Shown here in pieces: positions 642 to 28,680 of a DNA stretch of 32,000 bases. Location: NCBI GenBank assembly GCA_947379975.1, contig CANCPF010000020.1, positions 1 through 32,000 of the forward strand. The letters are read 5' to 3'. The stretch comes from Methylophilaceae bacterium (GTDB lineage Bacteria > Pseudomonadota > Gammaproteobacteria > Burkholderiales > Methylophilaceae). The notes below the pieces were generated by a model. The model was not told where the DNA came from, made no database searches, and was given only the letters and a program-made list of their open reading frames with translations. Position 1 is the first letter of the stretch, and each line of letters begins with the position of its first letter. The position numbers were made by a program, and so were the translations under genes.

Positions 642-2582
642 ATGGCAAGACCAAAGAAAAGCGACCAAGTATCTGACAAGAAGAATGTTGAGATTGTTAG
701 CCCTGAGCTACAAGAAGCTAACGCTGAGGAACGCCGCACGCGACTAAAAACCCTGATTATATTGGGTAAAGAGCGTGGCTATTTAACCTACGCTGAAATT
801 AACGATCACTTACCAGACGATGTGCAAGGTTCTGAGCAAATCGATGGCATTATCGGCATGATTAACGATATGGGCATTCAGGTTTACGAAGAAGCGCCTG
901 ATGCCGAAGTCTTGTTAATGTCAGATTCACCACCAGCCGTGACTGATGACGATGCAGTAGCTGAAGCTGAACAAGCGCTTGCCACAGTAGATTCTGATTT
1001 TGGCCGGACGACTGACCCAGTGCGTATGTATATGCGTGAAATGGGTACAGTAGATTTACTTACGCGTGAAAGTGAAATTGAGATTGCACGCCGTATTGAA
1101 GACGGTCTTAAACATATGGTGCAAGCGATTGCTGCCTGCCCAACCACTATTGCGGCCTTATTGGCCATGATAGATAAAGTAGAAGATGACGAATTAAGCG
1201 TTGACGATTTAATTGATGGATTAATTGAATCTGACATTACACCAGCTTTGGCTATCGTGATTGAATCTGACGACGAAGAATCAGACGATGAAGTTGAAGA
1301 TGAAGAGGAAGATGGCGATGAAGATGGTGCAAAAGCTGCTGCTATTTCAGCCGAAGCTTTAGCTAAACTTAAAGAAGAAGTCATCAAACGCTTTGCTATT
1401 GTGCGTGTTGCGCATAAAAAAATGACCGTAATCTTGCCGGTACGTGGTTCGCAAGATCCTGAATATCAAGCATTGCTCGCTGAAATTTTAGAAGAATTAA
1501 CCGCCTTCAGATTTTCACCAAAACAAGTAGAAGGTCTATGTGACCAAGTGCGCGAATTGGTTGAAGCTGTGCGTGGTCATGAGCGTAAAGTATTAGATTT
1601 CTGTGTAGATAAATCTGGCATGCCACGTTTGCACTTTATCAAATCTTTCCCAGGCAATGAAAGCAACTTAAACTGGCTCGCAGAAGAACTTAAAGCTGAG
1701 AAGCCTTACGTTGAAAAACTAATTCGTTATAACCACTCTATTTTAGATCAGCAACAACGTTTGATTAATCTAGAAAAAAATGTCGGTATTCCAATCAAAG
1801 AGCTTAAAGAAATTAATAAGCAAATGACCACTGGCGAGGCGCGTGCGCGTCGTGCCAAGCGTGAAATGATTGAAGCTAACTTGCGTTTAGTGATCTCTAT
1901 TGCAAAAAAATACACCAATCGTGGTCTGCAATTCTTGGATCTTATTCAAGAAGGCAATATCGGCCTGATGAAAGCGGTTGATAAATTTGAATACCGTCGC
2001 GGTTTCAAGTTCTCAACTTATGCCACATGGTGGATACGCCAAGCGATTACTCGTTCAATTGCGGATCAGGCACGTACCATTCGAATTCCAGTGCATATGA
2101 TAGAAACGATTAACAAAATGAATCGTATCAGCCGTCAAATTTTACAAGAAACAGGTGTAGAGCCTGATCCAGCGCTACTTGCAGAAAAAATGGAAATGCC
2201 TGAAGATAAGATTCGTAAAATCTTAAAAATCAGTAAAGAGCCTATCTCAATGGAAACGCCGATTGGTGATGATGAAGATTCACATCTAGGTGACTTTATT
2301 GAAGATGGTCAAACATTAGCGCCGGTAGATGCCGCAATTTACGCAAGTTTGCGCGATGCGACCAGTGAAGTGTTAGAATCGCTTACCCCGCGTGAAGCAA
2401 AAGTATTGCGTATGCGTTTTGGTATTGAAATGAATACCGATCATACGCTAGAAGAAGTGGGTAAACAGTTTGATGTAACACGTGAACGTATTCGCCAAAT
2501 TGAGGCAAAAGCGTTGCGTAAATTGCGTCATCCTACACGCTCAGAACGCTTGCGTAGCTTTTTAGAAACAGGTCAAGACTAG
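642..2582 (+). CDS. rpoD: RNA polymerase primary sigma factor (sigma-70)
   Basis: Region 2 motif [39 protein letters not shown]. Region 4 motif [30 protein letters not shown]. Acidic non-conserved insert ([22 protein letters not shown]). ATG at 642 is preceded by GAGGT; GTG at 639 is an alternative start. Confidence 0.97.
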
Positions 2583-2630
2583 TTCAAAACCCGTAATAAA
2601 AATCAGACATATAAATAATTAAAGGTTTTC

Positions 2631-2673
2631 GGCCCCCTAGCTCATGCTTGGTTAGAGCAGCGGACTCATAATC
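2631..2673 (+). pseudogene. 5' half of resident tRNA-Ile2(CAU), severed in the anticodon loop by island insertion
   Basis: GGCCCCC-TA-GCTC...GAGC-A-GCGGA-CTCATAA-TC, followed by unrelated AT-rich DNA. Identical to the island tRNA 5' exon except at position 7 (C versus T). Confidence 0.85.
2664..2673. repeat. attL core (ACTCATAATC), direct repeat of 27883-27892
   Basis: The exact 10-bp repeat lies at the two points where tRNA sequence meets island sequence. Confidence 0.8.
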
Positions 2674-2818: not shown

Positions 2819-3100
2819 GGCCCCTTAGCTCATGCTTGGTTAGAGCAGCGGACTCATAAAAAATTGTGCCATACGTTTGGAAACTGCGTATGGGATGGTG
2901 TCAAATTCGGTGAAACCTGACGGCAGAAATGCACAAGGCAATGCCGAGCGAAGCTTAGTGTGAAAGCACTTTGAACGTGTAGAGACTTGACGGCACCCAC
3001 CTAAAGCTTCGGCCATGGTGAAGACAAAGTCCAGGGAGTGGTGAAAGCCACACAAACCAGAATCCGTTGGTGCTGTGTTCGACTCACAGAGGGGCCACCA
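2819..3100 (+). tRNA. ileX: tRNA-Ile2 (anticodon CAU, lysidine type) interrupted by a group I intron
   Basis: Exons 2819-2857 and 3061-3100 join to a cloverleaf: acceptor GGCCCCT/AGGGGCC, anticodon stem GCGGA/TCCGT, loop CTCATAA, T arm CTGTG-TTCGACT-CACAG, encoded CCA. The G1:C72 pair and a non-GGG anticodon stem argue against an initiator tRNA. From memory it closely resembles E. coli ileX (GGCCCCUUAGCUCA...). Confidence 0.88.
2858..3060 (+). ncRNA. Group I intron (IC3, Azoarcus tRNA-Ile type), no ORF
   Basis: Inserted after CAU (between nt 36 and 37). The internal guide GTG (2866-2868) can pair with exon CAT through a U.G wobble. Core strings GGGATGGTGTCAAATTCGGTGAAACC and GTGTAGAGACTTGACGGCACCCACCTAA match my memory of the Azoarcus intron. 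The P2 arms CCATACG/CGTATGG are complementary. The terminal G at 3060 precedes exon AATCCG. Confidence 0.85.
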
Positions 3101-3110
3101 AAATAGATAA

Positions 3111-3139
3111 CCTCAGCTAGAGATAGCTGGGGTTTTTTT
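3111..3139 (+). terminator. Rho-independent terminator of island tRNA
   Basis: CCTCAGCTA-gaga-TAGCTGGGG followed by TTTTTTT. Confidence 0.75.
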
Positions 3140-3264
3140 ATATTTTTAAATTAGATAATGTGAGAATATAAACAAATAGGTGATCAGTTGTATTTTGCGG
3201 GTAAAAACTAAAAATCCAGTTTTTTGAAATATGTTAATTATGATAAATTTTATGGGGATATAAA

Positions 3265-3588
3265 ATGGCTATCAAATTTGCTAGATTCAATATAGAGCTT
3301 TCAGAAACCTCGAATTCAGAGAAAATAGCTGATGAGTGGCAAAGTATGTTAAACGATGCTGCAATCGAAGGCTATGCTAATAGTTATGAGATATTCTACT
3401 CCTCGCAGCTAGGAGTTGTCGGGGTAAGCATTCCTTATGAATCTGAGGATCCAATATCACTTCTAGAGGCTGGTGCGGTATTAGGATTTTGTCAGTCAAG
3501 ATGCGAGCAGTCAGACATTGGAGAGGGCCAAAGCATGTGGTTGTCTTTACATGAAGCTGATGATTCAACCATTTATTCCCCAATCTGA
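3265..3588 (+). CDS. Hypothetical small, strongly acidic protein
   Basis: 107-aa ORF with GGGGA upstream of the ATG. By my count about 18 D/E versus 4 K/R. No recognisable motif. Confidence 0.5.
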   Translation: MAIKFARFNIELSETSNSEKIADEWQSMLNDAAIEGYANSYEIFYSSQLGVVGVSIPYESEDPISLLEAGAVLGFCQSRCEQSDIGEGQSMWLSLHEADDSTIYSPI

Positions 3589-3622: not shown

Positions 3623-3676
3623 AATTTTCTTTTACTACTAAAAGCTCTCTAAATATTCTTCCACAAAATCCGTTGC
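3623..3676. repeat. Degenerate att-like sequence upstream of int
   Basis: ATTTTCTTTTACTACT resembles the island right end ATTTCTTGAAACTACT (27871-27886). CTTCCACA followed by AAATCCGTTG resembles the core plus the start of the tRNA 3' half (CTCATAATCCGTTG). Confidence 0.35.
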
Positions 3677-3707: not shown

Positions 3708-5081
3708 ATGCCTGAAAAAGTCGAAACTACCTATCAAATCCTGCCTCGTGAATTGATTGTTTATCAGCGCGGAGATAGTGATGTTTGGCAATGCCGTCTC
3801 AAAGTGGACAGCAAATGGTTTTCTAAAACCACAAAAGAGCGTGATCTAAATAAAGCCATAGAACGTGCTAAGCGTTTGTTATTTGAAGCGCAACTTCGTA
3901 AAGAATCAAACATTCCCATAGTCACTAAAAAATTCCGTGACATAGCAAGGCTTGCCAAGCAGCAGATGCTTGACGAGCTAGCTAATCCTAAAATGAAAGC
4001 GCCTGTTTCATTTAATCAATACATCAAGATTATTGATGATTATTTGACTCCATTCTTTGGTAATAAGAATATTGATGGCATCAATTTTGAAGCGTTGGAT
4101 GAGTATGAAATTTGGCGCACTAAAGAAATGGGCAAAGCACCTGCCTACAGCACTGTACGCAAACACAACGTCACATTAAATAGAGTATTTGATAAGGCTG
4201 TTGAAAAAGGTTACATCACCCAATCAAGCAAACCCAAGCTTGAAACCAAAGGGCAAAAGTCTACTGAGTATGCAACGTTTGATGTCACGGAAGTTAATGC
4301 AGTGCTGGGTAATTTTCCAAGTTGGATTGCTAACACCAAGAATCAAGAAAAGCGCGAACAACGCGAGTTGTTATATGACTATGTACGTGTGCTCCTTGAC
4401 ACAGGAGCACGCCCGGGCAAAGAGTTATTGGATCTCCAATGGAAGAACATTAGGTGCAGAATTGCTGTCAGTGATGATGTCATTCGTCAGGTGGATGAAG
4501 AGGGTAATGTCATTGAAATGACGCATGAAGGTTTAGATGATGCAGGTGAATCGAATCCATTAACAAAATGGGAAGCCACAGTTTCGATGTCAGTGTATGG
4601 CAAAACCAAAGACAGAATTGCGAACGGATTTGATGCTACGTTTAATGTGCTTAAAGAGATTGTTGCTAGGAATTATCCCAACACAGAATTAACTCTGAAA
4701 AAGCTCACTGAAGCGAATGATGAAAGGTTTGTGTTTAGAACACGATCTGATAAAGAGCCCAGCAGCTTTAATCATCTGTTTGATCGTTACCTTGATGAAC
4801 ATAGCTTACTAATCGATCGTAATACGGGTAGAAAACGTGTTTTTTATAGCTTGCGAAGTGCATATGCGACAACAGTGATGAATATGGATCAAGTGCCTAT
4901 AAGAGACTTATCTAAGCAGTTAGGTAATTCTGTTGGAATTATCCAGAAGCATTATGATAGGGCTACTGGGGATGCTATCGTTGAAAACGTCAGAGCACCT
5001 AATGCTAGAAAAGCGTTGTTTAATACAGACTCAGTTGCTGATATCTATAAGTCCAAAAAAAATAATATTAAGAACAAGTAA
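3708..5081 (+). CDS. int: Tyrosine recombinase / island integrase
   Basis: 457 aa. Catalytic-domain signatures LLDTGARPGKELLDLQW (Arg I), FYSLRSAYAT (box II) and GIIQKHYDR (catalytic Tyr). Sits next to a tRNA at an island end. Confidence 0.9.
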   Translation: MPEKVETTYQILPRELIVYQRGDSDVWQCRLKVDSKWFSKTTKERDLNKAIERAKRLLFEAQLRKESNIPIVTKKFRDIARLAKQQMLDELANPKMKAPVSFNQYIKIIDDYLTPFFGNKNIDGINFEALDEYEIWRTKEMGKAPAYSTVRKHNVTLNRVFDKAVEKGYITQSSKPKLETKGQKSTEYATFDVTEVNAVLGNFPSWIANTKNQEKREQRELLYDYVRVLLDTGARPGKELLDLQWKNIRCRIAVSDDVIRQVDEEGNVIEMTHEGLDDAGESNPLTKWEATVSMSVYGKTKDRIANGFDATFNVLKEIVARNYPNTELTLKKLTEANDERFVFRTRSDKEPSSFNHLFDRYLDEHSLLIDRNTGRKRVFYSLRSAYATTVMNMDQVPIRDLSKQLGNSVGIIQKHYDRATGDAIVENVRAPNARKALFNTDSVADIYKSKKNNIKNK

Positions 5082-9044: not shown

Positions 9045-9611
9045 TTAAACTAACTCAACTGCATTACGCAGTATGTCTGGACGTGTATCAATATATTTTT
9101 GGGTGGTGCTCATCGCCGAGTGCCCTGCGAGTTGCATCATCACCCTAACTGAAACCCCCTTTTCAGAAAGTTTTGTCAAATATCCTCTGCGACCTGAATG
9201 CGATGTAGCTCCATCTAACCCAGCTTGACGATATAAGCCATTCACAATGTGCGTAAGCGTATTGGAAGTAAAGCCATCAGCACGTAAGGTAGCAAATAAG
9301 GGCTTTTTAAGATCTTTGCATGGCTGAGCTAGTACATAGCTAGCTAATTCAGCTTGCATGCGTTCTGATAACAATACTTCACGGCTTTTACTACCTTTAG
9401 TTTGTTCTGCGCTCAAATAAATCTCAGTACGTATCTTTTGGTCGGTAGTGAGCACATCGCAATAGCGTAGTGCAGCGACTTCACCAATTCGCATTCCAGC
9501 CCAATGTGTGAGTAGTAGAATAGTTTTATTGCGTTTAGCGAATTTAGTTTGATTGGTGTAATCCAGTACACGTTGTAATTCACGATCTGATATTGTTTTT
9601 GCTTGTGACAT
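9045..9611 (-). CDS. Small tyrosine recombinase, catalytic domain only (FimB/FimE-sized)
   Basis: Signatures THWAGMRIGEVAALRY (Arg I), HSGRRGYLT (H-x-x-R) and LAGHSAMSTTQKYI (His...Tyr). Start moved to the ATG at 9611, which is preceded by AAAGGAGAA. Confidence 0.85.
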   Translation of the reverse strand: MSQAKTISDRELQRVLDYTNQTKFAKRNKTILLLTHWAGMRIGEVAALRYCDVLTTDQKIRTEIYLSAEQTKGSKSREVLLSERMQAELASYVLAQPCKDLKKPLFATLRADGFTSNTLTHIVNGLYRQAGLDGATSHSGRRGYLTKLSEKGVSVRVMMQLAGHSAMSTTQKYIDTRPDILRNAVELV

Positions 9612-10649
9612 TTTGTTCTCCTTTTTGAACACATTTTGTTATTAGTATTTTGTTTTCAGTTGAAAGAAATTCCTATCTATTTTGTAAATATTGAAACCAA
9701 ATAACTATCAATGACTTAGCTGTGGTTCGGCCTCTTTGAACACAAAATAGTACAAATGTGTTGAGACGTTTAATAGGGTTTATGGATGTACTAATACCAA
9801 ATGTTTCATTACTAGTATTTAGTGAGGAGTTGGCTTTACTTTGATTATTTCAGGTGACTTCACTTAAATCTGAAATCGATCTATTTGAGCATTACCTGAG
9901 ATTAATATTGGTTTGATGGGAAGTGATTGCATACACATAGTATTAAAGCGAACACGTTCGCTTGTTCTTCGCTTGCGCTCATCACATTTTTTCTTTATGT
10001 GATTGTTATTTAAAACTTCATAGCTCTTCATAATTGGATAGATGAATTATTGATGTGTTTTTCTGTTTTTCCCATTTAGTAGGAAGAATAAGCCACGCCC
10101 TTTTACAGGGCATGGTCTTGAGTACACCTTTTAGTGAGGTATCCAAACAACTGATATACACACAACTTGAATTAACAAGTAAGGCAGGTTTTGCGGTCTC
10201 CTTTTACGTGCTCGTCTTACGCAACATATCTATCGCCTATATCAGAAGCTTGTTTAGATATGTTTGTGGGCTAAATGTGGCGTTCCCACTCACTTTCAGC
10301 TTATCCATTCGCGATAAGCCTACATTACGTATTACTACGCAACTAACCATATACAACATTACAAACGTTACAGCACAGTGGTGCGTCGTTTAAGGCATCC
10401 ATAAAGGGTAGTGTAATGAAGATGAGTAGTAAGTGACTCAATTTGCTTACCGTCACGCATTTAAGAACGGATTTCGCAGCACTATGATAATCGGCGTGCC
10501 AACCTTAACCTTACTTGTACACTTATTTATACTTGAACAGTAACAACCAAGATTAAATGTGGTTCTTGTTCAAGATTGGCCAAAAGAGGTTGTCCAGACC
10601 CTAGATCAGATCATATTGTTGTGTTGCCTTAACTAAATGGAGATAAATC

Positions 10650-11992: not shown

Positions 11993-13198
11993 CTAATTGG
12001 AATAAATTTTTATTACTTGAACGGATTGCTCCAAATGGCCGCACCATTTTTTAATGCGTTTGTCCTTACTTTTCATCCCCTCATTTGCAAAGACTAATGC
12101 CGTATCAATCTGATTTATGTTTCGATAATAATCGCCAAGTAAACATGATGATCTTGCATCTCCATTTTTTGATTTGGCTTTTAAGTAATCTAGAAATTCA
12201 GATTGACTTGCGGGCATTCTGTTTTTTTCAGACATCCATTCTTTATATGGTAGCGCATCGAACCTTCCGTTCTGCTCAGTCCAATAATCGTAGATCATTA
12301 AAAATCTTTCTGCGTCATCAGAAGTTTTGGCAGTGAATTCAAATTGTCCCGGATAAAAAAAACTGTAGAAAATTAGATTGTACATACCAAACCCACTCCC
12401 GTAGTTGATCGCTTTATTAAATTGCTCGGTGGCTCTCTTAAGATCAACCTGAGTGCCAATTCCTCTCTCGTAAAAGAGGCCAAGATTATTTATAGCGTTT
12501 GGCACTGACTTATCATCGCTGGCATACTCGAATAATTGTTTAGCAGTCGTCCTTTTAGCTATTTCTGGACTACTAAGCCCAATATATGCATAGTTAACTT
12601 TACATGCCCAGCCACCATCCTGAATACATTTTTCAAATAATTCGATACCTTTATTAGGATTAAAGAACGCGGAATTTGGTTCTAGCAACTTAGAGGCATA
12701 AAATCCAGTAGATTTAGGACGATCGAAAACCTTAGAGCAATATTCTCTTTCTTTACTTTCATTTTTTAAAACACTCTCTTTACCACCATAAATATCGCAA
12801 AATTTATATTCAATAAATTGCTTGTCATCTTCGTTAGCTTTTTTATAAATACCAACGAGTTTTTCAACCCAAAATTTGGCTTTTTGCTCGTCAATGCTAA
12901 CTCCATTAACCCCTTGACTATACTTAATTATAAGAAGAGCATTTGCTCTGATGTCTCCTTTTTTTGCCAAATCTGATAACAAAGGGAGTGCATCTGGCCC
13001 TCTATAGGAATTGATTAGAATATTAGCGAGATCGAGTTTATCTTCATTATCTATTTTTTTAGAAATAGGCTCATGATTTGCTATTATGTAATCCATACCC
13101 TTTTCATCAAAAATATCTTTTAATTTTAATGTGGTTGCGCCAGCATAAAATGGGGCGATAACTACTAAAACGATAATAAGCTTGAATAAGTTTTTCAT
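11993..13198 (-). CDS. Secreted Sel1-like repeat (SLR/TPR) protein
   Basis: N-terminal signal peptide MKNLFKLIIVLVVIAPFYAGA. Sel1-type repeats, for example AINNLGLFYERGIGTQVDLKRATEQFNKAI. Confidence 0.8.
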   Translation of the reverse strand: MKNLFKLIIVLVVIAPFYAGATTLKLKDIFDEKGMDYIIANHEPISKKIDNEDKLDLANILINSYRGPDALPLLSDLAKKGDIRANALLIIKYSQGVNGVSIDEQKAKFWVEKLVGIYKKANEDDKQFIEYKFCDIYGGKESVLKNESKEREYCSKVFDRPKSTGFYASKLLEPNSAFFNPNKGIELFEKCIQDGGWACKVNYAYIGLSSPEIAKRTTAKQLFEYASDDKSVPNAINNLGLFYERGIGTQVDLKRATEQFNKAINYGSGFGMYNLIFYSFFYPGQFEFTAKTSDDAERFLMIYDYWTEQNGRFDALPYKEWMSEKNRMPASQSEFLDYLKAKSKNGDARSSCLLGDYYRNINQIDTALVFANEGMKSKDKRIKKWCGHLEQSVQVIKIYSN

Positions 13199-13217
13199 TC
13201 AATTTTCCAGTTAATTG

Positions 13218-15239
13218 TTATTTTGCTTCTAGCTGCTTGATCTGCGTATTTATACATTTATTATATGCAGCAGGCCCATTAATAAATTTATCTTCTGAAC
13301 AATTGATTTCAACCCTCTTTTTCTGTTCTTCAGTGAGTGAATCTAAAGCCAAATTGCTCGTTTGCTGATTTAACTTCTTAAGATGATTGAGCATGCATTG
13401 ATCATATGAGTTTTTACCGGCAAATGTAGACTGTGTACAAGCTGAAGTAATGGAGTCAAACTCGCCTTTATTTAGCGTTGATAGCTGTGATTTTATAAAG
13501 TCGTCTTTACCTGCTTTTGGATTCGTAATAATTGCTGATTTTTTATTTTTGCTTATAGCTTTACTATCTGAGCCTTTAGAATCTAATTCCCGTTCAAGAA
13601 GAGTTATTTGATCTCTATATTCTTCGGCGTAATTTATCCAAAGACTTTCATTAAGCTGTTTTTTTGCCGCTTCAATATACTCTCTGGCTTTAAGATAATT
13701 GTTTGTTTTTAAGTATATTCTTGCTAAGGCAGTCTCAGTCTGAGCACTGTGGTGGTGATTCATTAGAGCCTTTTCATACCATCCTATTGCCTCAAATACA
13801 TTTTTATCTACACCCCAGCCTCTTTCATAAAGCATCCCAATATTGCTAGCGCCCTCCATGTGCCCAAGGTTATATCCATTTAAATTTAATTCATATGCTT
13901 TCTTATAATCATGAAAGCTATTGTTAGGATCCATTAGGCGCCACCCTTCATTCACCACTTGTCTTGCGGTAGCAGAAGGGGCATCAGGATCTATAGCAAT
14001 CAGAGTGCTTGGTGAGTATTCGGTAGGGGCTTTTGGTTTATCAAAGATAGGGATTAATATTATTAGAAAGGCAGCGAATAAAAACATAAGCAACACGATT
14101 TTGAAATCCTTACGTGGTTTAGTACTTGGTGTTACTATATTTTTCGTAAGGAGGGGTATGATTGTTTTATTCGAATTTGGTTTAAAATCTTTCAAGCTTT
14201 GCAGATAGCAAGTAGGACACTCTTTACCTTTGAATCTCATGTGAGCAATGTTTAAAGGCTCTTTATCACATCTAACTAATGACTTTTCTACCAAAAGCTT
14301 TTCAAGATGATTTGCCCATTTTTCTGCCGAAGGCCTTTCATCAAGCTTTCCTATAAATGCTCTATCAAATAGCTCTCTGGTTTTGTTATCCCATAAAAAA
14401 TGGATACTTTGAGGTCTTGGTTTGATGCTCAGGTTCGGCTGAATAGCATGCGGATATAGCCCTGCCGCAGCTTTTTCATCATTAGTCGCAATCCCTTCAT
14501 CGTCTACAAGGATGCCTTGAAACGGATGAGTGCCATTATTTAAAAGCTGAAACAATATTACAGCTAAGGCATATCTATCCTGATTCTCACCTAAATCTTT
14601 TGGTGATATCTTTCCTCTAAAAGCCTCTGGAGAAATGTAATCTGTAGAAATTAATTCCGCTGGGAATCGACTACTTTCATTGGACTTCTTGTCAGCTACT
14701 GAAAAGCCATCGCAATCCACCAATGAAACAATATGTGTTTGCCTGAATACTCTTATGTTCTGTGGCTTAAGGTCAATGAAGTAATGCTTGTTTTTATGTA
14801 GGGCAGCTACAATTAATGAGAGATTTTTTGCAATTTCTAACTTGTATGAGAATGCCACCTCATCTGGAGCATTTAGTTTTTTGAATAAAACTTGATCATA
14901 AAAATAATCTAAAGAAAAAGAGTCATGAAGGTCGACAAGTGGCATTAAATAACCAGCCGTCACTCCATGCTCATCTTTTAGGGTAGCAAAAGGCCAGGCT
15001 ATTTGTGGGTATGTCACTCCAGCAAAACTAATATGAATATCATCAGGTTTATTAGACAACATTGCCCTGATTTTGGGCTCATCTACCTTCTTATTGGCAT
15101 GATAGACCTTTGCCGCTACCACCTCAGATTCAAACTCTACTTTGTAAATGACAGCGGTAGCGCCTTTGCCTAGTTGATTGGTTGGGCTTATATCTACTGC
15201 GACTTTATGATTGCTTGTGTCATGAACGAAGTATCTCAA
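13218..15239 (-). CDS. Membrane-spanning Ser/Thr protein kinase with extracytoplasmic Sel1-repeat and Cys-motif C-terminal region
   Basis: Kinase motifs: GKGATAVIYKV (G-loop), VAAKVY (Lys), FIDLKPQNIRV (catalytic loop), VDCDGFS (DFG-like), ISPE (APE-like). TM helix IVLLMFLFAAFLIILIPIF. Sel1 repeat NIGMLYERGWGVDKN. TTG start overlaps the PP2C stop (TTGA). Confidence 0.9.
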   Translation of the reverse strand: MRYFVHDTSNHKVAVDISPTNQLGKGATAVIYKVEFESEVVAAKVYHANKKVDEPKIRAMLSNKPDDIHISFAGVTYPQIAWPFATLKDEHGVTAGYLMPLVDLHDSFSLDYFYDQVLFKKLNAPDEVAFSYKLEIAKNLSLIVAALHKNKHYFIDLKPQNIRVFRQTHIVSLVDCDGFSVADKKSNESSRFPAELISTDYISPEAFRGKISPKDLGENQDRYALAVILFQLLNNGTHPFQGILVDDEGIATNDEKAAAGLYPHAIQPNLSIKPRPQSIHFLWDNKTRELFDRAFIGKLDERPSAEKWANHLEKLLVEKSLVRCDKEPLNIAHMRFKGKECPTCYLQSLKDFKPNSNKTIIPLLTKNIVTPSTKPRKDFKIVLLMFLFAAFLIILIPIFDKPKAPTEYSPSTLIAIDPDAPSATARQVVNEGWRLMDPNNSFHDYKKAYELNLNGYNLGHMEGASNIGMLYERGWGVDKNVFEAIGWYEKALMNHHHSAQTETALARIYLKTNNYLKAREYIEAAKKQLNESLWINYAEEYRDQITLLERELDSKGSDSKAISKNKKSAIITNPKAGKDDFIKSQLSTLNKGEFDSITSACTQSTFAGKNSYDQCMLNHLKKLNQQTSNLALDSLTEEQKKRVEINCSEDKFINGPAAYNKCINTQIKQLEAK

Positions 15240-16243
15240 TTAAAAAATCCCTTGAAGGATAAGTAGCTTAATCTAATAAGATAAAAAACGATCACACCTA
15301 AAGTAATGAAAAATGTGTACTTGGCGAAGTGCCCTAACAGATAAGCCCATTTAGTCTCTGCCACGATTGAGTGCTTACCTTGAGTCACATCAGCTTTTAG
15401 GTATTTCTTATCAGTATTAACATGTTCAATCTTTTTAGGTTCTTTAACGATTGATTTGTCTTCAGATTCGTCAATGTGAACTCCTCTTCTAAAAGCCAAA
15501 CAAATTGTTTTATCATCGCCTGTTAATTTATCTGCCTGAATGTCAGCTAAGATTGATTTGAGTTTGTCATTTCTTCCAGTCTGACTCTTCTCTTTCTCGA
15601 TCATATTAAATAGAGGAACGACGAAACCCCATTTAGGCTCACTATCGTTAACCATCGATAGTGAAGTACCTCCGTCAGTACCAAGCATTATCCAGTCTAC
15701 TGAGTTGATTGGAATGATTCTTAAACGCTTAATCCAGTCAGCTTCAGTAATAAAGTATGTTTCATTTGAATATTCGCCATTTTCTGGTAAGGAAGAGAAG
15801 TAATCTGCTTTTATATTGGTAGAAATAGACTTACCACCAAAAGCAGCGCCATCTCCAATATGAATTAGAAAACCCCCAGTTTCACCAATCAGACAAGCTA
15901 ACAAAGTACAGTGATAATTCCTTAGGTTGTCGCTTTTAGCTATTGTTCTTAGCTCATAACGAGCCTTTAGAATAGATTCGACTACATAGTCATTTATCCA
16001 AGCCCCTGGCTCTCTTTTTTCCAATTCTTCACTGAGTGAAATCAGTGATTTTGAGAAAAATTCCGTTACAAAACTCGAGCTGATTTGAGAGTGCTTGGCA
16101 GAGCCTGCTCCATCACTGACTACAATAGCAAGCCACTTCCCATCTGCACTTTCTGATACGAAGCTTGAGTCCTGACAAGGCAAACCAGTTTTAACATGGT
16201 TCTGCCCAGTAACAGATGAATATGAATAAACCCAATTCGTCAT
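15236..16243 (-). CDS. PP2C-family protein phosphatase with C-terminal TM anchor
   Basis: Motifs AIVVSDGAGSAKHS and IMLGTDGG. C-terminal hydrophobic helix FFITLGVIVFYLIRLSYL. Confidence 0.85.
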   Translation of the reverse strand: MTNWVYSYSSVTGQNHVKTGLPCQDSSFVSESADGKWLAIVVSDGAGSAKHSQISSSFVTEFFSKSLISLSEELEKREPGAWINDYVVESILKARYELRTIAKSDNLRNYHCTLLACLIGETGGFLIHIGDGAAFGGKSISTNIKADYFSSLPENGEYSNETYFITEADWIKRLRIIPINSVDWIMLGTDGGTSLSMVNDSEPKWGFVVPLFNMIEKEKSQTGRNDKLKSILADIQADKLTGDDKTICLAFRRGVHIDESEDKSIVKEPKKIEHVNTDKKYLKADVTQGKHSIVAETKWAYLLGHFAKYTFFITLGVIVFYLIRLSYLSFKGFFN

Positions 16244-16930
16244 TTATAAACCTACATTTCTCCAAGGGTCTGTCGATGGCAACTGAACCGTTTCGCCAGG
16301 TCTACTGCGACTGGCAGCACTCAAACTAGAACTCAGCCAAACAAACAACTCCTTGAATTTCATCCCTTCAAGCATCAGAGGTGGTTTGGTCGAGATTTGT
16401 GCCAATTTTGACAAGTCTGCACCTTCAACACCAATTGAAAAAATCTCCACTTTTTTAGTGGATTCTGCAGATTTACATTCTCTAATTGCAGCATTCCACT
16501 CGTCTGATGAATCAGTTGGTTCCCCATCAGAAATCACCATAATCCAAGGCCTAGTGTAAGAGATTCCAGCAGCCTTAAGGTTAGATTTGCCATCTTCAAC
16601 TAACTGAAGGGCAATTCGAAGACCTTTACCTAGGGGAGTTGAGCCTCCGGCTCTAATTGAAAAGGAGGAGAAATTGACAGCATCTGTCCAATCCATCATT
16701 ATTTCAGCGTCGTTTGTGGGGCCACCAACAGTTACGATTGATATCTGAACGCGGCTTAATGCAGCGTCATCTGCTCTTAAAGCTTCCTCTAATGCATGCA
16801 CTCCAACATTCAATTCTTCCATGCGAGTTTTGCCAGAGGATGTTCTGCTTTCCATAGAGCCTGACGCGTCTAGAACTAGTACACAAGGCGTTCTTTGGTT
16901 TGGATTACCACTAAAATCTATTGCACTCAT
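16244..16930 (-). CDS. vWA-domain protein (TerY-like)
   Basis: MIDAS motif VLVLDASGSM, downstream ISDGEPTD. Abuts the PP2C gene (TAA then ATG). Confidence 0.9.
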   Translation of the reverse strand: MSAIDFSGNPNQRTPCVLVLDASGSMESRTSSGKTRMEELNVGVHALEEALRADDAALSRVQISIVTVGGPTNDAEIMMDWTDAVNFSSFSIRAGGSTPLGKGLRIALQLVEDGKSNLKAAGISYTRPWIMVISDGEPTDSSDEWNAAIRECKSAESTKKVEIFSIGVEGADLSKLAQISTKPPLMLEGMKFKELFVWLSSSLSAASRSRPGETVQLPSTDPWRNVGL

Positions 16931-16943
16931 AAGCCACCATAAT

Positions 16944-17639
16944 TTAGTAAGTTGAATGATTAATTGCTGCTATAACAGCAAAGAGTAAGCACATAACAAT
17001 AAAAGATAATAACGCATATACAAAGATAGTCATGCCTGACTTCCCATTTACCCCTCTAACAACTACGGTGCATGACATGATGTCATGCAGTGTTTGTTTC
17101 TTTGCGGTAAATGGCTGCATAAAATATCCCAATCCCATGAGCAAGGCAGAAAGCCATCGACCAAAGTATCTTCCAACACCTTGACCTAAAGAAATTTGAC
17201 TGAAATTATAGTCAGTAACTTCGAGCCCTAGCCACTCTTTGCCAAAAGTGGCTCTTTTATTGCTCGACTCCATTAGCGAATGATAAAAAACCATAACTAC
17301 TATTCCAAGAAGATAATAGAAGGCGAGTGCTCTTGTGCCTGCTACATTTACTCCCTCTGTCGTGAGAATTAATCCGAAAACGAAGCCAATTAAAAGATTA
17401 GCTAAGCCACCAATGCAAGTGTCAATTGAAGCTGCTGCAAACCTCTCCCAAAAACCAGCATAAATATAAGCAACTGGAGTAGCAAGTGAAGATGTATTAG
17501 AAGGCAAAACAGTTTGAGCTGCTTTGGCTGCTTTTATTTGAACTGGCGTCTGACTAAAAATACGATGGCCACATTGTGGGCAAAATCGCATTGTTCCCAT
17601 TACTGAAGTACCACAACCTTCACAGTATTTGTCAGACAT
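16944..17639 (-). CDS. Zinc-ribbon plus RDD-family membrane protein
   Basis: N-terminal CEGCG...CPQCG. RDD-like WERFAAASIDT. Several TM helices. C-terminal TLHDIMSCTVVV. Confidence 0.8.
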   Translation of the reverse strand: MSDKYCEGCGTSVMGTMRFCPQCGHRIFSQTPVQIKAAKAAQTVLPSNTSSLATPVAYIYAGFWERFAAASIDTCIGGLANLLIGFVFGLILTTEGVNVAGTRALAFYYLLGIVVMVFYHSLMESSNKRATFGKEWLGLEVTDYNFSQISLGQGVGRYFGRWLSALLMGLGYFMQPFTAKKQTLHDIMSCTVVVRGVNGKSGMTIFVYALLSFIVMCLLFAVIAAINHSTY

Positions 17640-17654
17640 AGCTTGCTCCTTTAA

Positions 17655-18206
17655 TTAAATATCAACTGATGACCAATCAGCATCTTTGTATTTTTCATTT
17701 CTAACTGCGATTGCTTCTGCTATACAAACATAAGCATCTTCTAAGATGCTTTGATCTCGGTAAAGATCTGGATTCTTATCAAAACGACCGTAGGATTGTG
17801 GGGAAAAACTCCCGTTAGACAATATATAGAACCTAACCCATACATCACCTAGAGTGGCTTTTTTTGCTGAGAGATCAACAATCCAAGGAGCTGCAGGGCC
17901 ACCTCTCGATTTAACTTTCTTTATAATTTTTACCAACTCTTTTGAGCTCTCCATTTGAAGAAGTAGTTGGTTTTTCACTTGCTCAGGACTTAACAAGGCA
18001 ACTGAAAAGCCATCAGGCCTCCAAGGAAGTCCCATCTGATTTAGATACATCCAAGCGTTAATTACGCATTCTATAGACCTAGGAATTTCCACTTCGCCTG
18101 ATAGCCAGCGCTGAACAGTCCTTACATTCATATCAAGCAGTTGAGCAAGCTCGAGGAAATTCAGTCCTAAAGTTACTAAAGATTCTCTTAATAATGATGA
18201 TTGCAT
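17655..18206 (-). CDS. HTH (XRE-like) domain protein, first gene of the TerY-P operon
   Basis: N-terminal LELAQLLDMNVRTVQRWLSGEVEIP helix-turn-helix. The rest is unknown. Confidence 0.7.
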   Translation of the reverse strand: MQSSLLRESLVTLGLNFLELAQLLDMNVRTVQRWLSGEVEIPRSIECVINAWMYLNQMGLPWRPDGFSVALLSPEQVKNQLLLQMESSKELVKIIKKVKSRGGPAAPWIVDLSAKKATLGDVWVRFYILSNGSFSPQSYGRFDKNPDLYRDQSILEDAYVCIAEAIAVRNEKYKDADWSSVDI

Positions 18207-20633: not shown

Positions 20634-20806
20634 GATCAATTCGTAGAAATCTGAGTTTAATGAGCACCGTTGACAGAATAACAGTAAGATGATGGATGGG
20701 TGGTATGAAACTCGCAAGTGAGGGATTGGCTAGGCCTTGGCAGATGAAGCAGGGGAATAAAAGCCTGAATTACACGACCAGTTGGGATGAATTGGTTAAG
20801 GTTTGA
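20634..20806 (+). pseudogene. Decayed 3' remnant of a umuC/rumB-like (Y-family polymerase) gene, copy 1
   Basis: Reads LMSTVDRITVR-stop-WMGGMKLASEGLARPWQMKQGNKSLNYTTSWDELVKV-stop. Parallels copy 2 and the UmuC C-terminus (from memory, ...W.MK....SP.YTT). Has an internal stop and no 5' part. Confidence 0.7.
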
Positions 20807-20855
20807 ATTAATGTATAGTTGCGCAAATAATAAGTAATGAAGAAAAGAGAAAGTA

Positions 20856-24601: not shown

Positions 24602-24847
24602 GCTAAGGCTGGAGTAAGCTTGGGCGACTTAATACCAAGAACTTCAGCGCAGTTTGATATGTTTGCGTCAGGGCAATCAACCAGTCGAAGTACAAGTCTC
24701 ATGAGCACCATCGACCGAATTAACAGTAAGATAGGGCGTGAGTCGATTAAGTTAGCCAGTGAAGGCTTTGCTATGCTGTGGAAGATGAAGCAGGGGAATA
24801 AGAGTCCTAATTTCACGACTAGGTGGGACGAGTTGGTGGTGGTTTGA
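24602..24847 (+). pseudogene. 3' remnant of a umuC/rumB-like gene, copy 2
   Basis: NNYAKAGVSLGDLIPRTSAQFDMF...LMSTIDRINSKIGRESIKLASEGFAMLWKMKQGNKSPNFTTRWDELVVV. Compare the E. coli UmuC C-terminus from memory (YQKAGVMLGD...AQLNLF...LM..MD.LN...GR...WQMK...SPRYTT). No N-terminal polymerase domain is present. Confidence 0.8.
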
Positions 24848-26534
24848 ACAAAATCTCTATGATTTTTAATGAGTTCAAGAGATCAAAACTGATTGCTTCA
24901 ATATGTTTGTGAGGGGTTTTATGTTTACTTAAGAGAGAACACTTTATGGCTTGCGCCTCCTCGCCAGATGAGTGGGCGGCTAGTTTTGCTCTTAAATTAT
25001 TGAGATCTAAAAGCGGATTGACAGCCTCATCAATTACATCAGGTGGAGTGTTTTTTAAATTTAAAATTTCTTTAAGTAACTTGATTGATCCGATGCTAGG
25101 CTCTAATACAAGATTTAATTCTTTGGCAATTCTCTTCAAATAACTTTTTTCAATGCTCTCGACAACAACTTTTGCTAAGAGCAATATCGTGTCAATCCAA
25201 ATTTTTTGAGAGTTAGTTAATGGATAATGAATTTGGTTAATAAGGCTTGGCTCATGCAATTTAAACCATTCATAATTTGAAGCGCCTAAGTGAAATGCAT
25301 AGTCTTTTAGGTCACGTAAATTATCTGGCTCACTATCAAATTCTCCTAAAAAACTGTTTAAGAGTGTTCTTTTTGAAATGGCGCCTTTAGGATTCTCATT
25401 AAAACTTTTCCAATAAACTTGCTCTTGAAAAGGAAGGTCGGCTAAATCGCAAATCAATGTGTGAATCTGACCAGCCTCATTGAAATCGTATTCGCGAAGA
25501 TACCAAGAATTTCTGCATGAAATTGATCTATTTTCTAAGGTATATTTTTCTGGATCGGACTTGTACTTGTCTAGGACAGATGCGTTGAAGAAAACTGGTG
25601 AAGTTTGAAATGGTAGATTTGAATCTGGCTGGAAGTATGACGCTGTTGCTTTGGGGTCGCAGCTAGATTCAATAGTCTGATTGTTCTTAAAGTCATTTAT
25701 TATGAAAGTTTCATATTTTTTTGGCTTATCTTCTTTAGCCTTTAGTATTGCACCGAGCTCTTCAGAGGTGAATTTTGGATAAACAATTTGGCATCCACGG
25801 ATGAATCCAGCCCCATCATTTTGACTGTGAAATTTGTAAAAAATATTGGTATTATCATCTGAGATACTTTCACATTCAGTGTGTTGCCATGCACTGAAGC
25901 CCTTGGGAATAAAGGTGTAATCGAATACTTGTAAAAGTACATTATCCGTTGCGGCCATCTGCAACTCTATAATTTCACGATTAATAGATACAACTGAATC
26001 TGAAAATGATTTACCTGAATCCTGTTGGACTTTAATTACACTTTCAATATCGCCATTAGTATCTAATCTACACCAAGAATTCTTTTCTCTAACCCAGTGT
26101 AAATCGTGTGCAAATAATAAAAACTGAGGCACTTCATAATAATTCTTATTTGGTAATCCATCGAAATGTCTCCGGTGGATAAGGTGTTTTGTGCCCTCAA
26201 TCTCTACACCACTGATTCTAAGTGATGGTTCGTTAAACTCGACTCTAGGTGGTTTCCCTCCGCCATATACCAACCCGCATTGCCAAGTATCATTTCCAAT
26301 ATCCCATTCAGGAATAGTTTTGAAATCTATCTTGCTAATTTCAGACTTCGGTATCAAAAAGGATTTAATAAAAACTTGTCCTTCATTGAAGCTCGACGCT
26401 TCAAGAAGTAAAGATCTATCTGTTTGTTGAAGTGATAATAATTCTAGAAAAAGTTCTTTTTCAAATTGCTCAACTCCATGGGAGTGCTGTTCATATTGAG
26501 GATACGAAAGATTGATTATCGAACTAGCACTCAT
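24819..26534 (-). CDS. Large hypothetical protein (571 aa) with a C-terminal helical region carrying a HEPN-like R-x5-H motif
   Basis: LNNLRAKLAAHSSG (R515...H521, nt 24992-24972). The rest is unrecognised. The last 9 codons (KPPPTRPT) are antisense to the umuC remnant. Confidence 0.7.
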   Translation of the reverse strand: MSASSIINLSYPQYEQHSHGVEQFEKELFLELLSLQQTDRSLLLEASSFNEGQVFIKSFLIPKSEISKIDFKTIPEWDIGNDTWQCGLVYGGGKPPRVEFNEPSLRISGVEIEGTKHLIHRRHFDGLPNKNYYEVPQFLLFAHDLHWVREKNSWCRLDTNGDIESVIKVQQDSGKSFSDSVVSINREIIELQMAATDNVLLQVFDYTFIPKGFSAWQHTECESISDDNTNIFYKFHSQNDGAGFIRGCQIVYPKFTSEELGAILKAKEDKPKKYETFIINDFKNNQTIESSCDPKATASYFQPDSNLPFQTSPVFFNASVLDKYKSDPEKYTLENRSISCRNSWYLREYDFNEAGQIHTLICDLADLPFQEQVYWKSFNENPKGAISKRTLLNSFLGEFDSEPDNLRDLKDYAFHLGASNYEWFKLHEPSLINQIHYPLTNSQKIWIDTILLLAKVVVESIEKSYLKRIAKELNLVLEPSIGSIKLLKEILNLKNTPPDVIDEAVNPLLDLNNLRAKLAAHSSGEEAQAIKCSLLSKHKTPHKHIEAISFDLLNSLKIIEILFKPPPTRPT

Positions 26535-26537
26535 TTT

Positions 26538-27371
26538 TTACTCTTGGATAGAAATAGCGTATTTTTTTGGAATTTTTACTGCTCGTTTTACTTTGATTTC
26601 TGGAGCATATTTTAAGACTAATTTTTTTATTTTTTCATAAGGCCCATCACAACCAACAATTATTGAGGATATTGCCCCTTTAGGGAGTGTAAGAAGCCCA
26701 TTTGGATCAAAATGGTGGCCGCTTAGGAGAGGTTCATCAATTTCAGAGGATAGGATTAATCTATACTCTTTCTCATAACTCCAAACATCTGATTTAATTA
26801 GTAAGGGTGATAAAAGATCTCTTGTGCTTTCGGAGTATGTCTTAAGTGATGGATAATTAGTTTTATATCTGCATTTTAAGGCGGTAAACAACATCGATTT
26901 CTTTAAATCATATTCAATACATATACCAGTATGAGAATTTGCGTAGTGAGACCACATAAGTAAATTCTCTGGATTTGGACTCAAGCAATATATTCTATAT
27001 TTGGATTTTCTAACTACATCAACAATTGCCTCTGAAATTTGGTCTATGACGTGCTTGCTTCTTTGGGGGTCATTTAAAATTTTTCTTATCTCTTCATTTT
27101 TAGCTTGGGCAGGAAATAATTTATTGTAGGTTTTTATCGCCCATTTTTTGTGTAGATAATTCCCGATAAGGCTATTAGAAATAGTGTTGTCGAATTGAGG
27201 GCTACAATCCCATGGGTCGTTAAAAGATGAGGGTAAAGAGCAATAAATAGAGTTTGTTTTTAATAACTCTCGTAGACGTCCGAATTTGTATGGTTGCCAA
27301 TGATAGAGATACTTTAGCCCATTATTATGAGCATTATCTTCACCCAATGCTCGGCGGATAAATTTCTTCAT
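26538..27371 (-). CDS. DUF2971-family protein
   Basis: Motifs SSFNDPWD, LLMWSHYANSHTGICIEYDL and DVWSYEKEYRL are characteristic of DUF2971. Sits 3 nt upstream of the 571-aa gene. Confidence 0.8.
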   Translation of the reverse strand: MKKFIRRALGEDNAHNNGLKYLYHWQPYKFGRLRELLKTNSIYCSLPSSFNDPWDCSPQFDNTISNSLIGNYLHKKWAIKTYNKLFPAQAKNEEIRKILNDPQRSKHVIDQISEAIVDVVRKSKYRIYCLSPNPENLLMWSHYANSHTGICIEYDLKKSMLFTALKCRYKTNYPSLKTYSESTRDLLSPLLIKSDVWSYEKEYRLILSSEIDEPLLSGHHFDPNGLLTLPKGAISSIIVGCDGPYEKIKKLVLKYAPEIKVKRAVKIPKKYAISIQE

Positions 27372-27804: not shown

Positions 27805-27825
27805 TGCTTCCACATTTACTTCCAC
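27805..27825. promoter_or_regulatory. Two CTTCCAC(A) repeats, putative integrase arm-type sites (right arm)
   Basis: TGCTTCCACA at 27805-27814 and TTTACTTCCAC at 27815-27825. Same motif as the left-arm cluster. Confidence 0.5.
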
Positions 27826-27882
27826 GGTTTTTATTTTGTTCAATAAGCTATTGATTCATATTATTTAATATTTCTTGAAACT

Positions 27883-27892
27883 ACTCATAATC
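27883..27892. repeat. attR core (ACTCATAATC)
   Basis: Exact direct repeat of 2664-2673. Confidence 0.8.
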
Positions 27893-27928
27893 CGTTGGTG
27901 CTGTGTTCGACTCACAGGGGGGCCACCA
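27884..27928 (+). pseudogene. 3' half of the resident tRNA-Ile2(CAU): anticodon loop to CCA
   Basis: CTCATAA-TCCGT-TGGTG-CTGTG-TTCGACT-CACAG-GGGGGCC-A-CCA. The acceptor strand is complementary to the 5' half at 2631-2637. Confidence 0.85.
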
Positions 27929-27936
27929 GTAACGAT

Positions 27937-27969
27937 AAGGCTGACAGAAATGTCAGCCTTTTTCTTTTT
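27937..27969 (+). terminator. Rho-independent terminator of the resident tRNA locus
   Basis: AAGGCTGACA-gaaa-TGTCAGCCTT followed by TTTCTTTTT. Confidence 0.8.
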
Positions 27970-27978
27970 AAGCCTTAT

Positions 27979-28680
27979 TTACAGCTCATGTAAGGTTTCA
28001 TCTTCAAAGTAGTAAATATTTTCATGTTTGAATCCATAACTCCCACTTATTAACCGAATGTGTGGTTCAAGGGTAAATAATCCAGCCTCCAGAAGCGTAA
28101 TTTTTATATCAGGTACAATGAAATCCAGATTGCCCATATCTTGCTGTACAACATGGCCGAGATAATCTATTTGCTCAAATCCCAAGCGTTTGATTTCATC
28201 ATGCATTATTTGATAAAGCTCATTAAAAGTCATGTCTTTATGTGCAACTTTAAACAACGTAGCATGCAAATAACCTTGTGCATGCGCTCCTGCAATAAAC
28301 TCCAAATTAGATAATGGTGAGCGCCTAGCAACGCCATTTTCGACATAATAAGTCCGCGCATAATCACCGCAATAGCCTGCTATTGATGGATTTAAGTCGA
28401 TTGTGACTAAGTCATTTTCCTGAATTGGCCTATTGCTTGGTTCGTATTCGGTAGATGAAATGGCTAATAAAGTATGCTCGCCTGCCAATACAAGTGCGGG
28501 TAGGGATTTATACCAATAACCATCAACCCCAGCCTTGCGTTGTAAGTCATCGCATTTTTTAATTAAATCTATCTCAGTGACTCCAGGTCTAATGAATTCG
28601 GTAATGCTGTCCAATGTGTAGCGTGCCGCGTCCTGTACTTTCTGACAGAACTTTAATGCTTCAAAATCCATACAATCCAT
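27979..28680 (-). CDS. M24-family metallopeptidase-like protein (pita-bread fold)
   Basis: 233 aa. Pattern DLVTIDL...GYCGDYARTY...LGHVV...FTLEPHI...KHENIYYF is consistent with the M24 metal-ligand spacing. Confidence 0.7.
   Translation of the reverse strand: MDCMDFEALKFCQKVQDAARYTLDSITEFIRPGVTEIDLIKKCDDLQRKAGVDGYWYKSLPALVLAGEHTLLAISSTEYEPSNRPIQENDLVTIDLNPSIAGYCGDYARTYYVENGVARRSPLSNLEFIAGAHAQGYLHATLFKVAHKDMTFNELYQIMHDEIKRLGFEQIDYLGHVVQQDMGNLDFIVPDIKITLLEAGLFTLEPHIRLISGSYGFKHENIYYFEDETLHEL

Follow-up and report, generated by a model that had tools for sequence, protein, structure and literature searches.

The group I intron of Azoarcus is among the best-studied ribozymes. Small tRNA introns that lack an open reading frame (ORF) raise the question of how they spread and persist in bacteria. 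Here we analyse a 32,000-nt stretch of DNA from a Methylophilaceae bacterium (GenBank assembly GCA_947379975.1, contig CANCPF010000020.1, positions 1 to 32,000 of the forward strand; hereafter the window), in which a 203-nt intron of the Azoarcus type lies within a tRNA(CAU) gene carried by an integrase-bearing island. The closest described systems are the intron of the pre-tRNA-Ile(CAU) of Azoarcus sp. BH72, which belongs to subgroup IC3 and to the class named 'Ile2.5Ug' (Williams 2020, bioRxiv 10.1101/2020.01.27.920355), the islands that target tRNA and tmRNA genes (Islander/TIGER; PMC4383910), and the proposal of Randau and Soll, as summarised in PMC4390854, that disrupted and intron-containing tRNA genes of archaea are protected from mobile-element integration. 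In the open-access literature that we searched, there was no account of island-borne intron-containing tRNA genes or of a role of a bacterial group I intron at an attachment (att) site, and the nearest precedent found was the archaeal proposal for host genes only.

We found that the resident tRNA(CAU) gene, located downstream of rpoD, has been cut into two distant halves, and that the DNA between them carries a second, complete tRNA(CAU) gene interrupted by the intron. The best explanation overall, which we consider likely, is that the window contains a 'disrupt-and-replace' integrative island with an intron-split replacement tRNA.

The split resident gene and its island-borne counterpart

The chromosomal flank ahead of the target consists of the end of dnaG followed by the sigma-70 gene rpoD (642-2582, forward strand; all six sigma-70 Pfam regions), which precedes tRNA(CAU) in most related loci. 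Downstream of rpoD, the left attachment site attL (2631-2673, forward strand) is the 5' half of the resident intronless tRNA(CAU), which ends in ...GGACTCATAATC and includes the core ACTCATAATC at 2664-2673. No intron interrupts this half, in which CAT is followed at once by AATC, the opening four bases of the 3' exon, before the sequence diverges into island DNA. The right site, attR (27883-27928, forward strand), begins with the same core (27883-27892) and continues as the resident 3' half with its CCA, reading ACTCATAATCCGTTGG...CCACCA. Bounded by this direct repeat, the integrative island occupies positions 2674-27892 and measures 25,219 bp counting one core copy. Regeneration of the target by fusion is not seen at these borders, as the host half at attL runs into non-tRNA DNA (...CATAATC|TATTTAAG) and non-tRNA DNA directly precedes the resident 3' half at attR.

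Upon rejoining of the two resident halves, a cloverleaf with the acceptor stem GGCCCCC/GGGGGCC is obtained, whereas the island copy has GGCCCCT/AGGGGCC; the C7-G66 pair of the host copy is T7-A66 in the island copy, and from this compensatory difference it follows that the intron-bearing copy is a distinct gene. The exact RpoD protein is present in 10 other assemblies. Two of them (L001 and L005) have an undivided, intronless tRNA(CAU) after rpoD, and then a terminator and the genes for a peptidase M24 and a phosphoenolpyruvate (PEP) carboxylase, which are the genes that follow position 27928 in the window. When window positions 2401-2673 are joined to 27893-28200, the product is 100% identical over 581 nt to both of these empty sites, and therefore the intervening 25,219 bp are an insertion into the anticodon loop. 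A local duplication as the source of the upstream 5' half was also considered, and it is ruled out by the empty sites together with the distant 3' half.

Among the other assemblies with the same RpoD, one (L011) carries the same island as the window and another (L002) a variant island, with an integrase that is 76% identical and an intron that differs in P6a, P7 and the P8 loop. Two more (L008 and L010) have a third element at the same site, with the junction CATAA|AGGACC, other arm repeats and an intron-bearing tRNA of its own. Furthermore, in five contigs of the attP form (L021, L027, L134, L135 and L136) the right end, the core and the left end are joined and are followed by the arm repeats and the intron-bearing tRNA; these relatives align at 87-90% with the rejoined ends of the window island across the junction, and their configuration is that of excised circles or tandem copies. 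The original prediction, made from the letters of the window, had placed the intron on an integrase-driven island rather than in a chromosomal tRNA. For the window this is borne out by the split halves, the empty sites, the attP-form contigs and the C7-G66/T7-A66 difference; as a rule for the family it does not hold, since native, rpoD-linked intron genes exist. Such genes in related lineages, the split host gene and the bisection of the att core by the intron had not been part of that prediction.

The island-borne tRNA gene lies 145 nt inside the left end of the island, on the same strand as the host gene. When introns are allowed, ARAGORN reports a tRNA(cat) at 2819-3100 that contains an intron of 203 nt at position 40 and folds, once spliced, as a cloverleaf of 79 nt. 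Without introns, ARAGORN finds no tRNA in the window, a false negative that is resolved by allowing them; finders that lack this option would miss the sole functional gene and report fragments only. By the ARAGORN call and the sequence itself, the 5' exon (2819-2857, forward strand) ends in the anticodon CAT, the 3' exon (3061-3100, forward strand) includes CCA, and the intron is placed between nucleotides 36 and 37 of the anticodon loop. A terminator-like hairpin with a T run follows at 3109-3144 on the forward strand (consensus scan only).

Under the disrupt-and-replace explanation, the integrase encoded at 3708-5081 would have recombined the 10-bp ACTCATAATC with the identical host sequence in the anticodon loop and stem of tRNA(CAU); the resident gene would thereby have become two dead halves, the 5' one at 2631-2673 and the 3' one at 27883-27928, separated by 25.2 kb. 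Function would then be supplied by the island's own complete tRNA(CAU), and not by a target rebuilt through fusion. The transcript of this gene would excise its intron, with P1 formed by exon CAU and intron GUG, attack by guanosine and G3060 setting the 3' splice site, to give a normal tRNA. In this manner the intron would have moved between genomes as part of the passage of the island, without a homing endonuclease.

The intron lies inside the 10-bp crossover core (ACTCAT|AATC). The DNA of the island copy keeps GGACTCATAA, and 203 nt separate this from the remainder of the core, on its right, and from the 3' strand of the anticodon stem; with its core split by the intron, the tRNA gene of the island would not serve as an attB site. 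If the copy at 145 nt from attP had no intron, a single molecule would contain attB and attP as direct repeats; the split site would prevent both integrase-mediated self-deletion and further insertions. Because the anticodon loop cannot be mutated without loss of tRNA function, a self-splicing insert would break the DNA site and keep the RNA. We infer that the intron may quite possibly be retained because it insulates the att site, although this falls somewhat short of being probable.

The intron and its kinship with the Azoarcus ribozyme

The insert at 2858-3060 directly follows ...GGACTCAT, whose CAT ends at 2857. It starts with the eight nucleotides AAAAAATT, followed by GTG at 2866-2868, and it ends in G3060, after which the 3' exon begins with AATCCG and reads AATCCGTTGG...CCACCA. 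We annotate it as a group I intron of the IC3, Azoarcus type (2858-3060, forward strand) on the basis of the match to RF00028, the helix map, covariation and identity with the Azoarcus intron. P1 is CAU/GUG (2855-57 with 2866-68), in which T2857 with G2866 gives a U.G wobble at the 5' splice site. The further helices are P2 (2869-75 with 2887-93, CCATACG/CGTATGG), P3 (2897-2902 with 2992-97), P4 (2906-11 with 2943-48), P5 (2916-17 with 2937-38), P5a (2921-25 with 2930-34), P6 (2949-50 with 2976-77), P6a (2954-60 with 2967-73), P7 (2982 and 2984-88 with 3027-32), P8 (2998-3001 with 3017-20), P9.0 (3034-35 with 3057-58) and P9 (3038-42 with 3047-51), and the terminal (omega) G is 3060. P7 would pair G2982, the bulged A2983 and GACUU with AAGUCC at 3027-3032, and these strings are identical to those of Azoarcus. 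At the base of P5a, the lineage of the window shows C.C and G.A oppositions. A P10 helix between AAU of the 3' exon and AUU of the intron is possible in the window copy; it is not conserved in relatives and was left off the structure.

RF00028 (Intron_gpI) matches positions 2846-3053 over the full model, with 42.3 bits and E=2.8e-9 in an E-value search of 901 nt, a score that lies below the curated gathering cut-off of 50. At gathering thresholds Rfam listed nothing, a false negative that the E-value search resolved. According to Williams (bioRxiv 10.1101/2020.01.27.920355), who applies cut-offs of 18-20 bits, the RF00028 seed has no bacterial members. With respect to coding capacity, the only ORF is a 71-codon TTG frame on the opposite strand (2840-3055), with no endonuclease ORF in the intron. 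Intron lengths in relatives range from 200 to 216 nt and the differences are not multiples of 3, so nothing suggests coding.

We next consider the fold across relatives. A pattern scan for TGGTGTCAAATTCGGNGAAACCT, with one genome per species, gave at least 119 loci, and in about 90 of the matches listed the pattern occurs after GGACTCAT in tRNA(CAU). From the matches listed, 72 distinct tRNA(CAU) introns were drawn into an alignment, and the helices P1-P9, including the P3/P7 pseudoknot, were placed on the window intron. Upon scoring 60 pairs, 92.6% of the pair cells were standard-paired, compared to 27-39% in controls whose partners were shifted by 1-3 columns; in 29 pairs both partners change, and none of 500 shuffles attained the observed score. 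Changes on both sides of a pair were found in P2, P5a, P6, P6a, P7, P8, P9.0 and P9, with P7 contributing one covarying pair (U-A/A-U in 16 of the 72 sequences). P3 is invariant and thus uninformative, because the search pattern fixed it. The U.G wobble of P1 occurs in 70 of the 72 relatives, the column of the terminal G, with AATCC next to it, is invariant, and the strings of the catalytic core are all intact and invariant across the alignment.

The sequence of the Azoarcus ribozyme is printed in PMC8890501, and the natural intron has eight nucleotides ahead of the GUG guide. From GTG onwards, the window intron is collinear with this ribozyme and identical at 142 of 186 comparable positions (76%), with 6 gap columns. 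These sequence features add it to the known Ile2.5Ug class as a new member, and its homology to the Azoarcus class suggests that it splices. We consider it very likely that the window holds a functional-type intron of the Azoarcus class within an island-borne replacement tRNA. All that the original prediction said about the sequence of the insert stands: its length and its position directly after CAU (2858-3060) agree with the sequence and with the ARAGORN intron call, the leader is followed by a GTG (2866-2868) able to form P1 with exon CAU, the proposed P2 arms are complementary (CCATACG at 2869-2875, CGTATGG at 2887-2893), the 3' hairpin GTGGT-GAAA-GCCAC is found at 3038-3051, and the final G before AATCCG is G3060. 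The core strings that had been ascribed to Azoarcus are real, as the identity of 76% to the published ribozyme sequence attests, and the claim that the intron is ORF-less is upheld, the antisense TTG frame being merely mechanical. Its assignment to the Azoarcus-type IC3 introns agrees with the shared site, P1, 8-nt leader and terminal G and with the covarying P1-P9 fold.

Recurrence across species and rival explanations

The recurrence of the arrangement was surveyed in 81 species-level tRNA(CAU) intron loci, each having 400 nt or more of upstream DNA, taken from the matches listed. It was seen in 45 of them, 40 with a truncated 5' half and five with an attP-like junction. In the former, the intronless 5' half is on the same strand and 121-448 nt upstream (mostly 160-255 nt), and 38 of the 40 halves are broken 2-8 nt after CAT. 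The other five lack a tRNA half and have an attP-like core; one of them is in Limnohabitans parvus, which has two intron-bearing tRNAs 16 kb apart, and this pair suggests a tandem array. In the four island lineages with both kinds of junction the core is (A)CTCATAATC(C), and it always spans CAT|AA. Hosts include Methylophilaceae, Oxalobacteraceae, Comamonadaceae, Polynucleobacter and Sterolibacterium. The tRNA carried by the island is a foreign one at several loci, where 13-18 of 38 positions distinguish it from the remnant. Other integrases are found at further loci, namely a P4-like protein of 424 aa in L090 and a protein of 416 aa in L118.

The same intron core also occurs in tRNA-Leu(UAA) of gammaproteobacterial metagenome-assembled genomes (L015, L022, L031 and others) and in Rhodobacteraceae (L014, L023, L046 and others), where the interrupted gene is tRNA-Thr(UGU) and the 5' region is longer. 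In these Thr and Leu classes, upstream gene fragments were present in only 2 of 27 loci among the matches listed. Additionally, exact matches to the core pattern with no recognisable tRNA exon upstream were observed at L057 3944-3966 and L061 4779-4801, the latter on a Cyclobacteriaceae (Bacteroidota) chromosome, and these introns may reside in other genes. In L048, an apparently complete intronless tRNA(CAU) lies about 143 nt upstream of, and in tandem with, an intron-bearing copy, and the locus ends 78 nt into the intron. Among ten IMG/VR viral contigs (L147-L156), nine have an intron-bearing tRNA(CAU) with the same core and the tenth (L155) is Leu-like; phages therefore also carry intron-split tRNA(CAU) genes. 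No remnants or integrase homologs were found near the intron-bearing tRNA(CAU) genes of these viral contigs.

About half of the listed tRNA(CAU) intron loci look native, and therefore the intron is not confined to islands. No remnant is present in Rhodocyclales, the closest relatives of Azoarcus, where the gene lies approximately 110-120 nt from rpoD. Nested loci were also observed. In L133, L140, L141 and L144 the order is a host 5' half (junction CATAA|GAAAG, with arm repeats ACACACCG), a second half, and an island of the window type; the second half belongs to a different, intronless tRNA(CAU) and has the junction CATAATC|TATTTAAG (L140 2440-2920). The simplest reading is that an outer element brought an intronless heterologous tRNA(CAU), which was then hit by an island of the window type, and it follows that intronless island copies are vulnerable. 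Finally, the complete chromosome OZ271846.1 of Methylophilaceae ME-M6 (L041) has a relic of about 1.2 kb after rpoD, which consists of attL, four arm repeats, the intron-bearing tRNA, about 750 nt and attR and lacks an integrase. Several substitutions mark the decaying halves of the host tRNA, the intron-bearing tRNA is the only intact copy, and L041 therefore shows a route by which an intron-bearing gene can become the fixed chromosomal copy. A second intron-bearing tRNA (L073) lies about 32 kb away on the same chromosome.

These loci bear on the other explanations that we weighed. If there were no island, the intron-bearing gene would be the resident tRNA, and the halves would be unrelated partial duplications or assembly artefacts; the window may be metagenome-assembled and half of the related loci have no remnant, which would suit such a reading. 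However, the rejoined halves are found intact, at 100% over 581 nt, in two assemblies with identical RpoD, the two copies differ by a compensatory change in the acceptor stem, contigs of the attP form exist, and the architecture recurs in independent assemblies and in isolates, including the complete Methylophilaceae chromosome, Limnohabitans parvus, Massilia atriviolacea and Janthinobacterium. This explanation is already contradicted, and we assign it a negligible probability. The intron might instead be a decayed, non-splicing relic in an island tRNA pseudogene, with the cell using another tRNA(CAU). The RF00028 score below the gathering cut-off and the C.C and G.A oppositions at the base of P5a could be taken as signs of decay, but Williams notes the absence of bacterial members from the seed of that model and works with thresholds of 18-20 bits. 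Moreover, the catalytic-core strings are intact and invariant in the 72 relatives, the changes on both sides of pairs in eight helices from P2 to P9 are those expected under ongoing selection, the exons are intact and foldable, and in L041 it is the host halves that decay and the intron-bearing gene that remains intact. A dead intron is, consequently, very improbable.

A more serious alternative grants that the island and the replacement tRNA are real and holds that the gene was taken from a host in which it was already intron-bearing, the intron then having no role for the island and its position in the att core being coincidental. Integrases and this class of intron both favour the anticodon loop. 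Native-looking intron genes stand directly after rpoD in Methylophilaceae, Rhodocyclaceae and Oxalobacteraceae, the exons of island tRNAs resemble those of native intron-bearing genes, and L140 suggests that islands also carry intronless heterologous tRNAs. On the other hand, several island lineages all have the intron form despite their differing junctions, arm repeats and integrases (the int457 family, L090 and L118), the core spans the intron site in every lineage with a definable core, an intronless copy at 145 nt from attP would create the direct repeat of attB and attP on one molecule, and the Thr and Leu intron classes are without the association. We regard this passenger origin as a real possibility, though not as the probable one.

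Several observations weigh against the disrupt-and-replace explanation or against its insulating component. In L035, L056, L065, L107 and L132, there is no remnant and 17 nt separate rpoD from the start of an intron-bearing tRNA(CAU); the gene may therefore have been interrupted before islands captured it, in which case the intron would be a passenger. The outer element of L140 seems to have an intronless replacement with a different anticodon stem, so the intron is not the sole option. Sampling from the integrase side, in metagenomes, found the intron-bearing tRNA in 10 of 10 loci with enough upstream DNA, but these are close relatives (72-90% identity) and not independent samples. The score of 42.3 bits against a cut-off of 50 belongs here as well. 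ARAGORN leaves the choice between Ile2 and Met at the label 'Met(cat)', and the linkage to rpoD and the likeness to Williams' Ile2 class are no more than suggestive of an Ile2 identity. A window of 32 kb cannot show whether the split gene is the only such tRNA(CAU) of the host, and we infer both splicing and recombination from the sequence.

Taken together, we suggest tentatively that self-splicing group I introns are maintained by islands as 'att-site insulators', and that island integration followed by decay, of which the relic in L041 is an example, would then be a major route by which introns of the Azoarcus type spread and became fixed across Betaproteobacteria; we regard this as possible and not as established. 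If true, the intron would be an adaptation at the level of the element and not merely a selfish or neutral insert. The loci give a concrete vehicle for the spread of ORF-less tRNA introns, namely integrase-driven islands that supply the intron, and a testable selective reason for its retention, in that the DNA site is broken and the RNA is restored. Such introns could also render engineered tRNA genes refractory to particular integrases.

Further island content and comparison with known systems

The tyrosine integrase of 457 aa (3708-5081, forward strand) is assigned by PHROG_1 integrase (E=1.4e-27, residues 19-433) and has the motif strings TGARPGKE, YSLRSAY and KHYDR. It has no Pfam match at 1e-3, and a PDB sequence search gave only a marginal match, to an integrase N-terminal domain (E=0.07). 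Homologs with 40-76% identity lie just downstream of the intron-bearing tRNA(CAU) in at least 10 loci among the matches listed. Between the tRNA and the integrase is an ORF of 107 aa (3265-3588, forward strand), which is conserved with the integrase in L011-L013 and for which there was no Pfam or PHROG match. A second tyrosine recombinase of 195 aa (9045-9632, reverse strand) comprises the catalytic domain only (Pfam 2.9e-24, PHROG_216 2.4e-35). As island integrase it was ranked second, the 457-aa gene being the one conserved beside the intron-bearing tRNA; candidate roles are inversion or resolution, or it may have been left behind by another element.

Four CTTCCACA repeats, two direct and two inverted, are located at 2750-2803 between the attL core and the island tRNA, and these left-arm repeats are conserved in L021, L027, L135 and L140. 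In the right arm, two CTTCCAC(A/G) repeats (27807-27826, forward strand) are kept in the attP-form contigs. The window contains 8 copies of CTTCCACR compared to 1.13 expected, and 6 of the 8 flank the att cores, which points to them as candidate arm-type sites of the integrase. A seventh CTTCCACA copy at 3658-3665 precedes the start codon of the integrase by 43 nt and may serve in autoregulation.

The cargo looks defence-like. At 11993-18206 (reverse strand) it encodes a Sel1-repeat protein, a Ser/Thr kinase with Sel1 repeats, a PP2C phosphatase, a VWA protein and an RDD protein, with weak PD-T4-6 matches for the kinase and the RDD protein, and at 26538-27371 (reverse strand) a DUF2971 protein, which has a match at 3e-51 to PDC-S31, a candidate defence family. 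We also observe a direct repeat of 103 nt (20705-20807 and 24746-24848, 77% identity, 4 kb apart), which overlaps a three-copy family of 22 nt. A BLAST of the region against phage records returned short matches to the tRNA and the core only.

Compared to the Azoarcus BH72 intron, the window intron has the same gene type and the same CAU|AA site, and both have a 3-bp CAU/GUG P1, an 8-nt leader, a length of about 205 nt, no ORF and a terminal G. The two agree fully or almost fully in the J3/4-P4, J6/7-P7-P3 and J8/7-P7 strings, whereas P2, P5a, P6a, the P8 loop and P9 differ, largely in a compensatory manner. The receptor-like motifs of P5 and P8 are CCUGAC...CAAGG and CCUAAA...CAUGG in the window, compared to CCUAAG...UAUGG in Azoarcus. 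The genomic settings also differ, as the window intron belongs to a gene that an island carries next to an integrase and that coexists with a split resident gene, whereas the Rhodocyclales loci nearest to Azoarcus (L029, L020, L112 and L130) look native. Group I introns driven by homing endonucleases share horizontal spread with the window case; however, the window intron has no endonuclease ORF, its vehicle is the site-specific integration of a whole island, and it arrives with its own exons, whereas homing introns invade an intronless allele.

With the islands that target tRNA and tmRNA genes, as outlined in PMC4383910, the window island shares a tyrosine integrase beside a tRNA, short identical cores at its ends, a crossover in the region of the anticodon stem-loop, presence/absence polymorphism and defence-like cargo. 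It departs from their defining feature in that account, which is regeneration of the target by fusion, in that neither junction rebuilds the gene and a separate intron-bearing gene is present instead. Destroying and replacing the target would thus be a third solution for elements that target tRNA genes, besides regeneration by fusion. In the proposal of Randau and Soll, as PMC4390854 summarises it, the logic is that of the window, in which an interruption of the anticodon loop removes the DNA site of an integrase and RNA processing restores the tRNA. There, host genes of archaea and introns spliced by proteins are concerned, whereas in the window, a bacterial case, it would be the mobile element that benefits, by means of a self-splicing group I intron.

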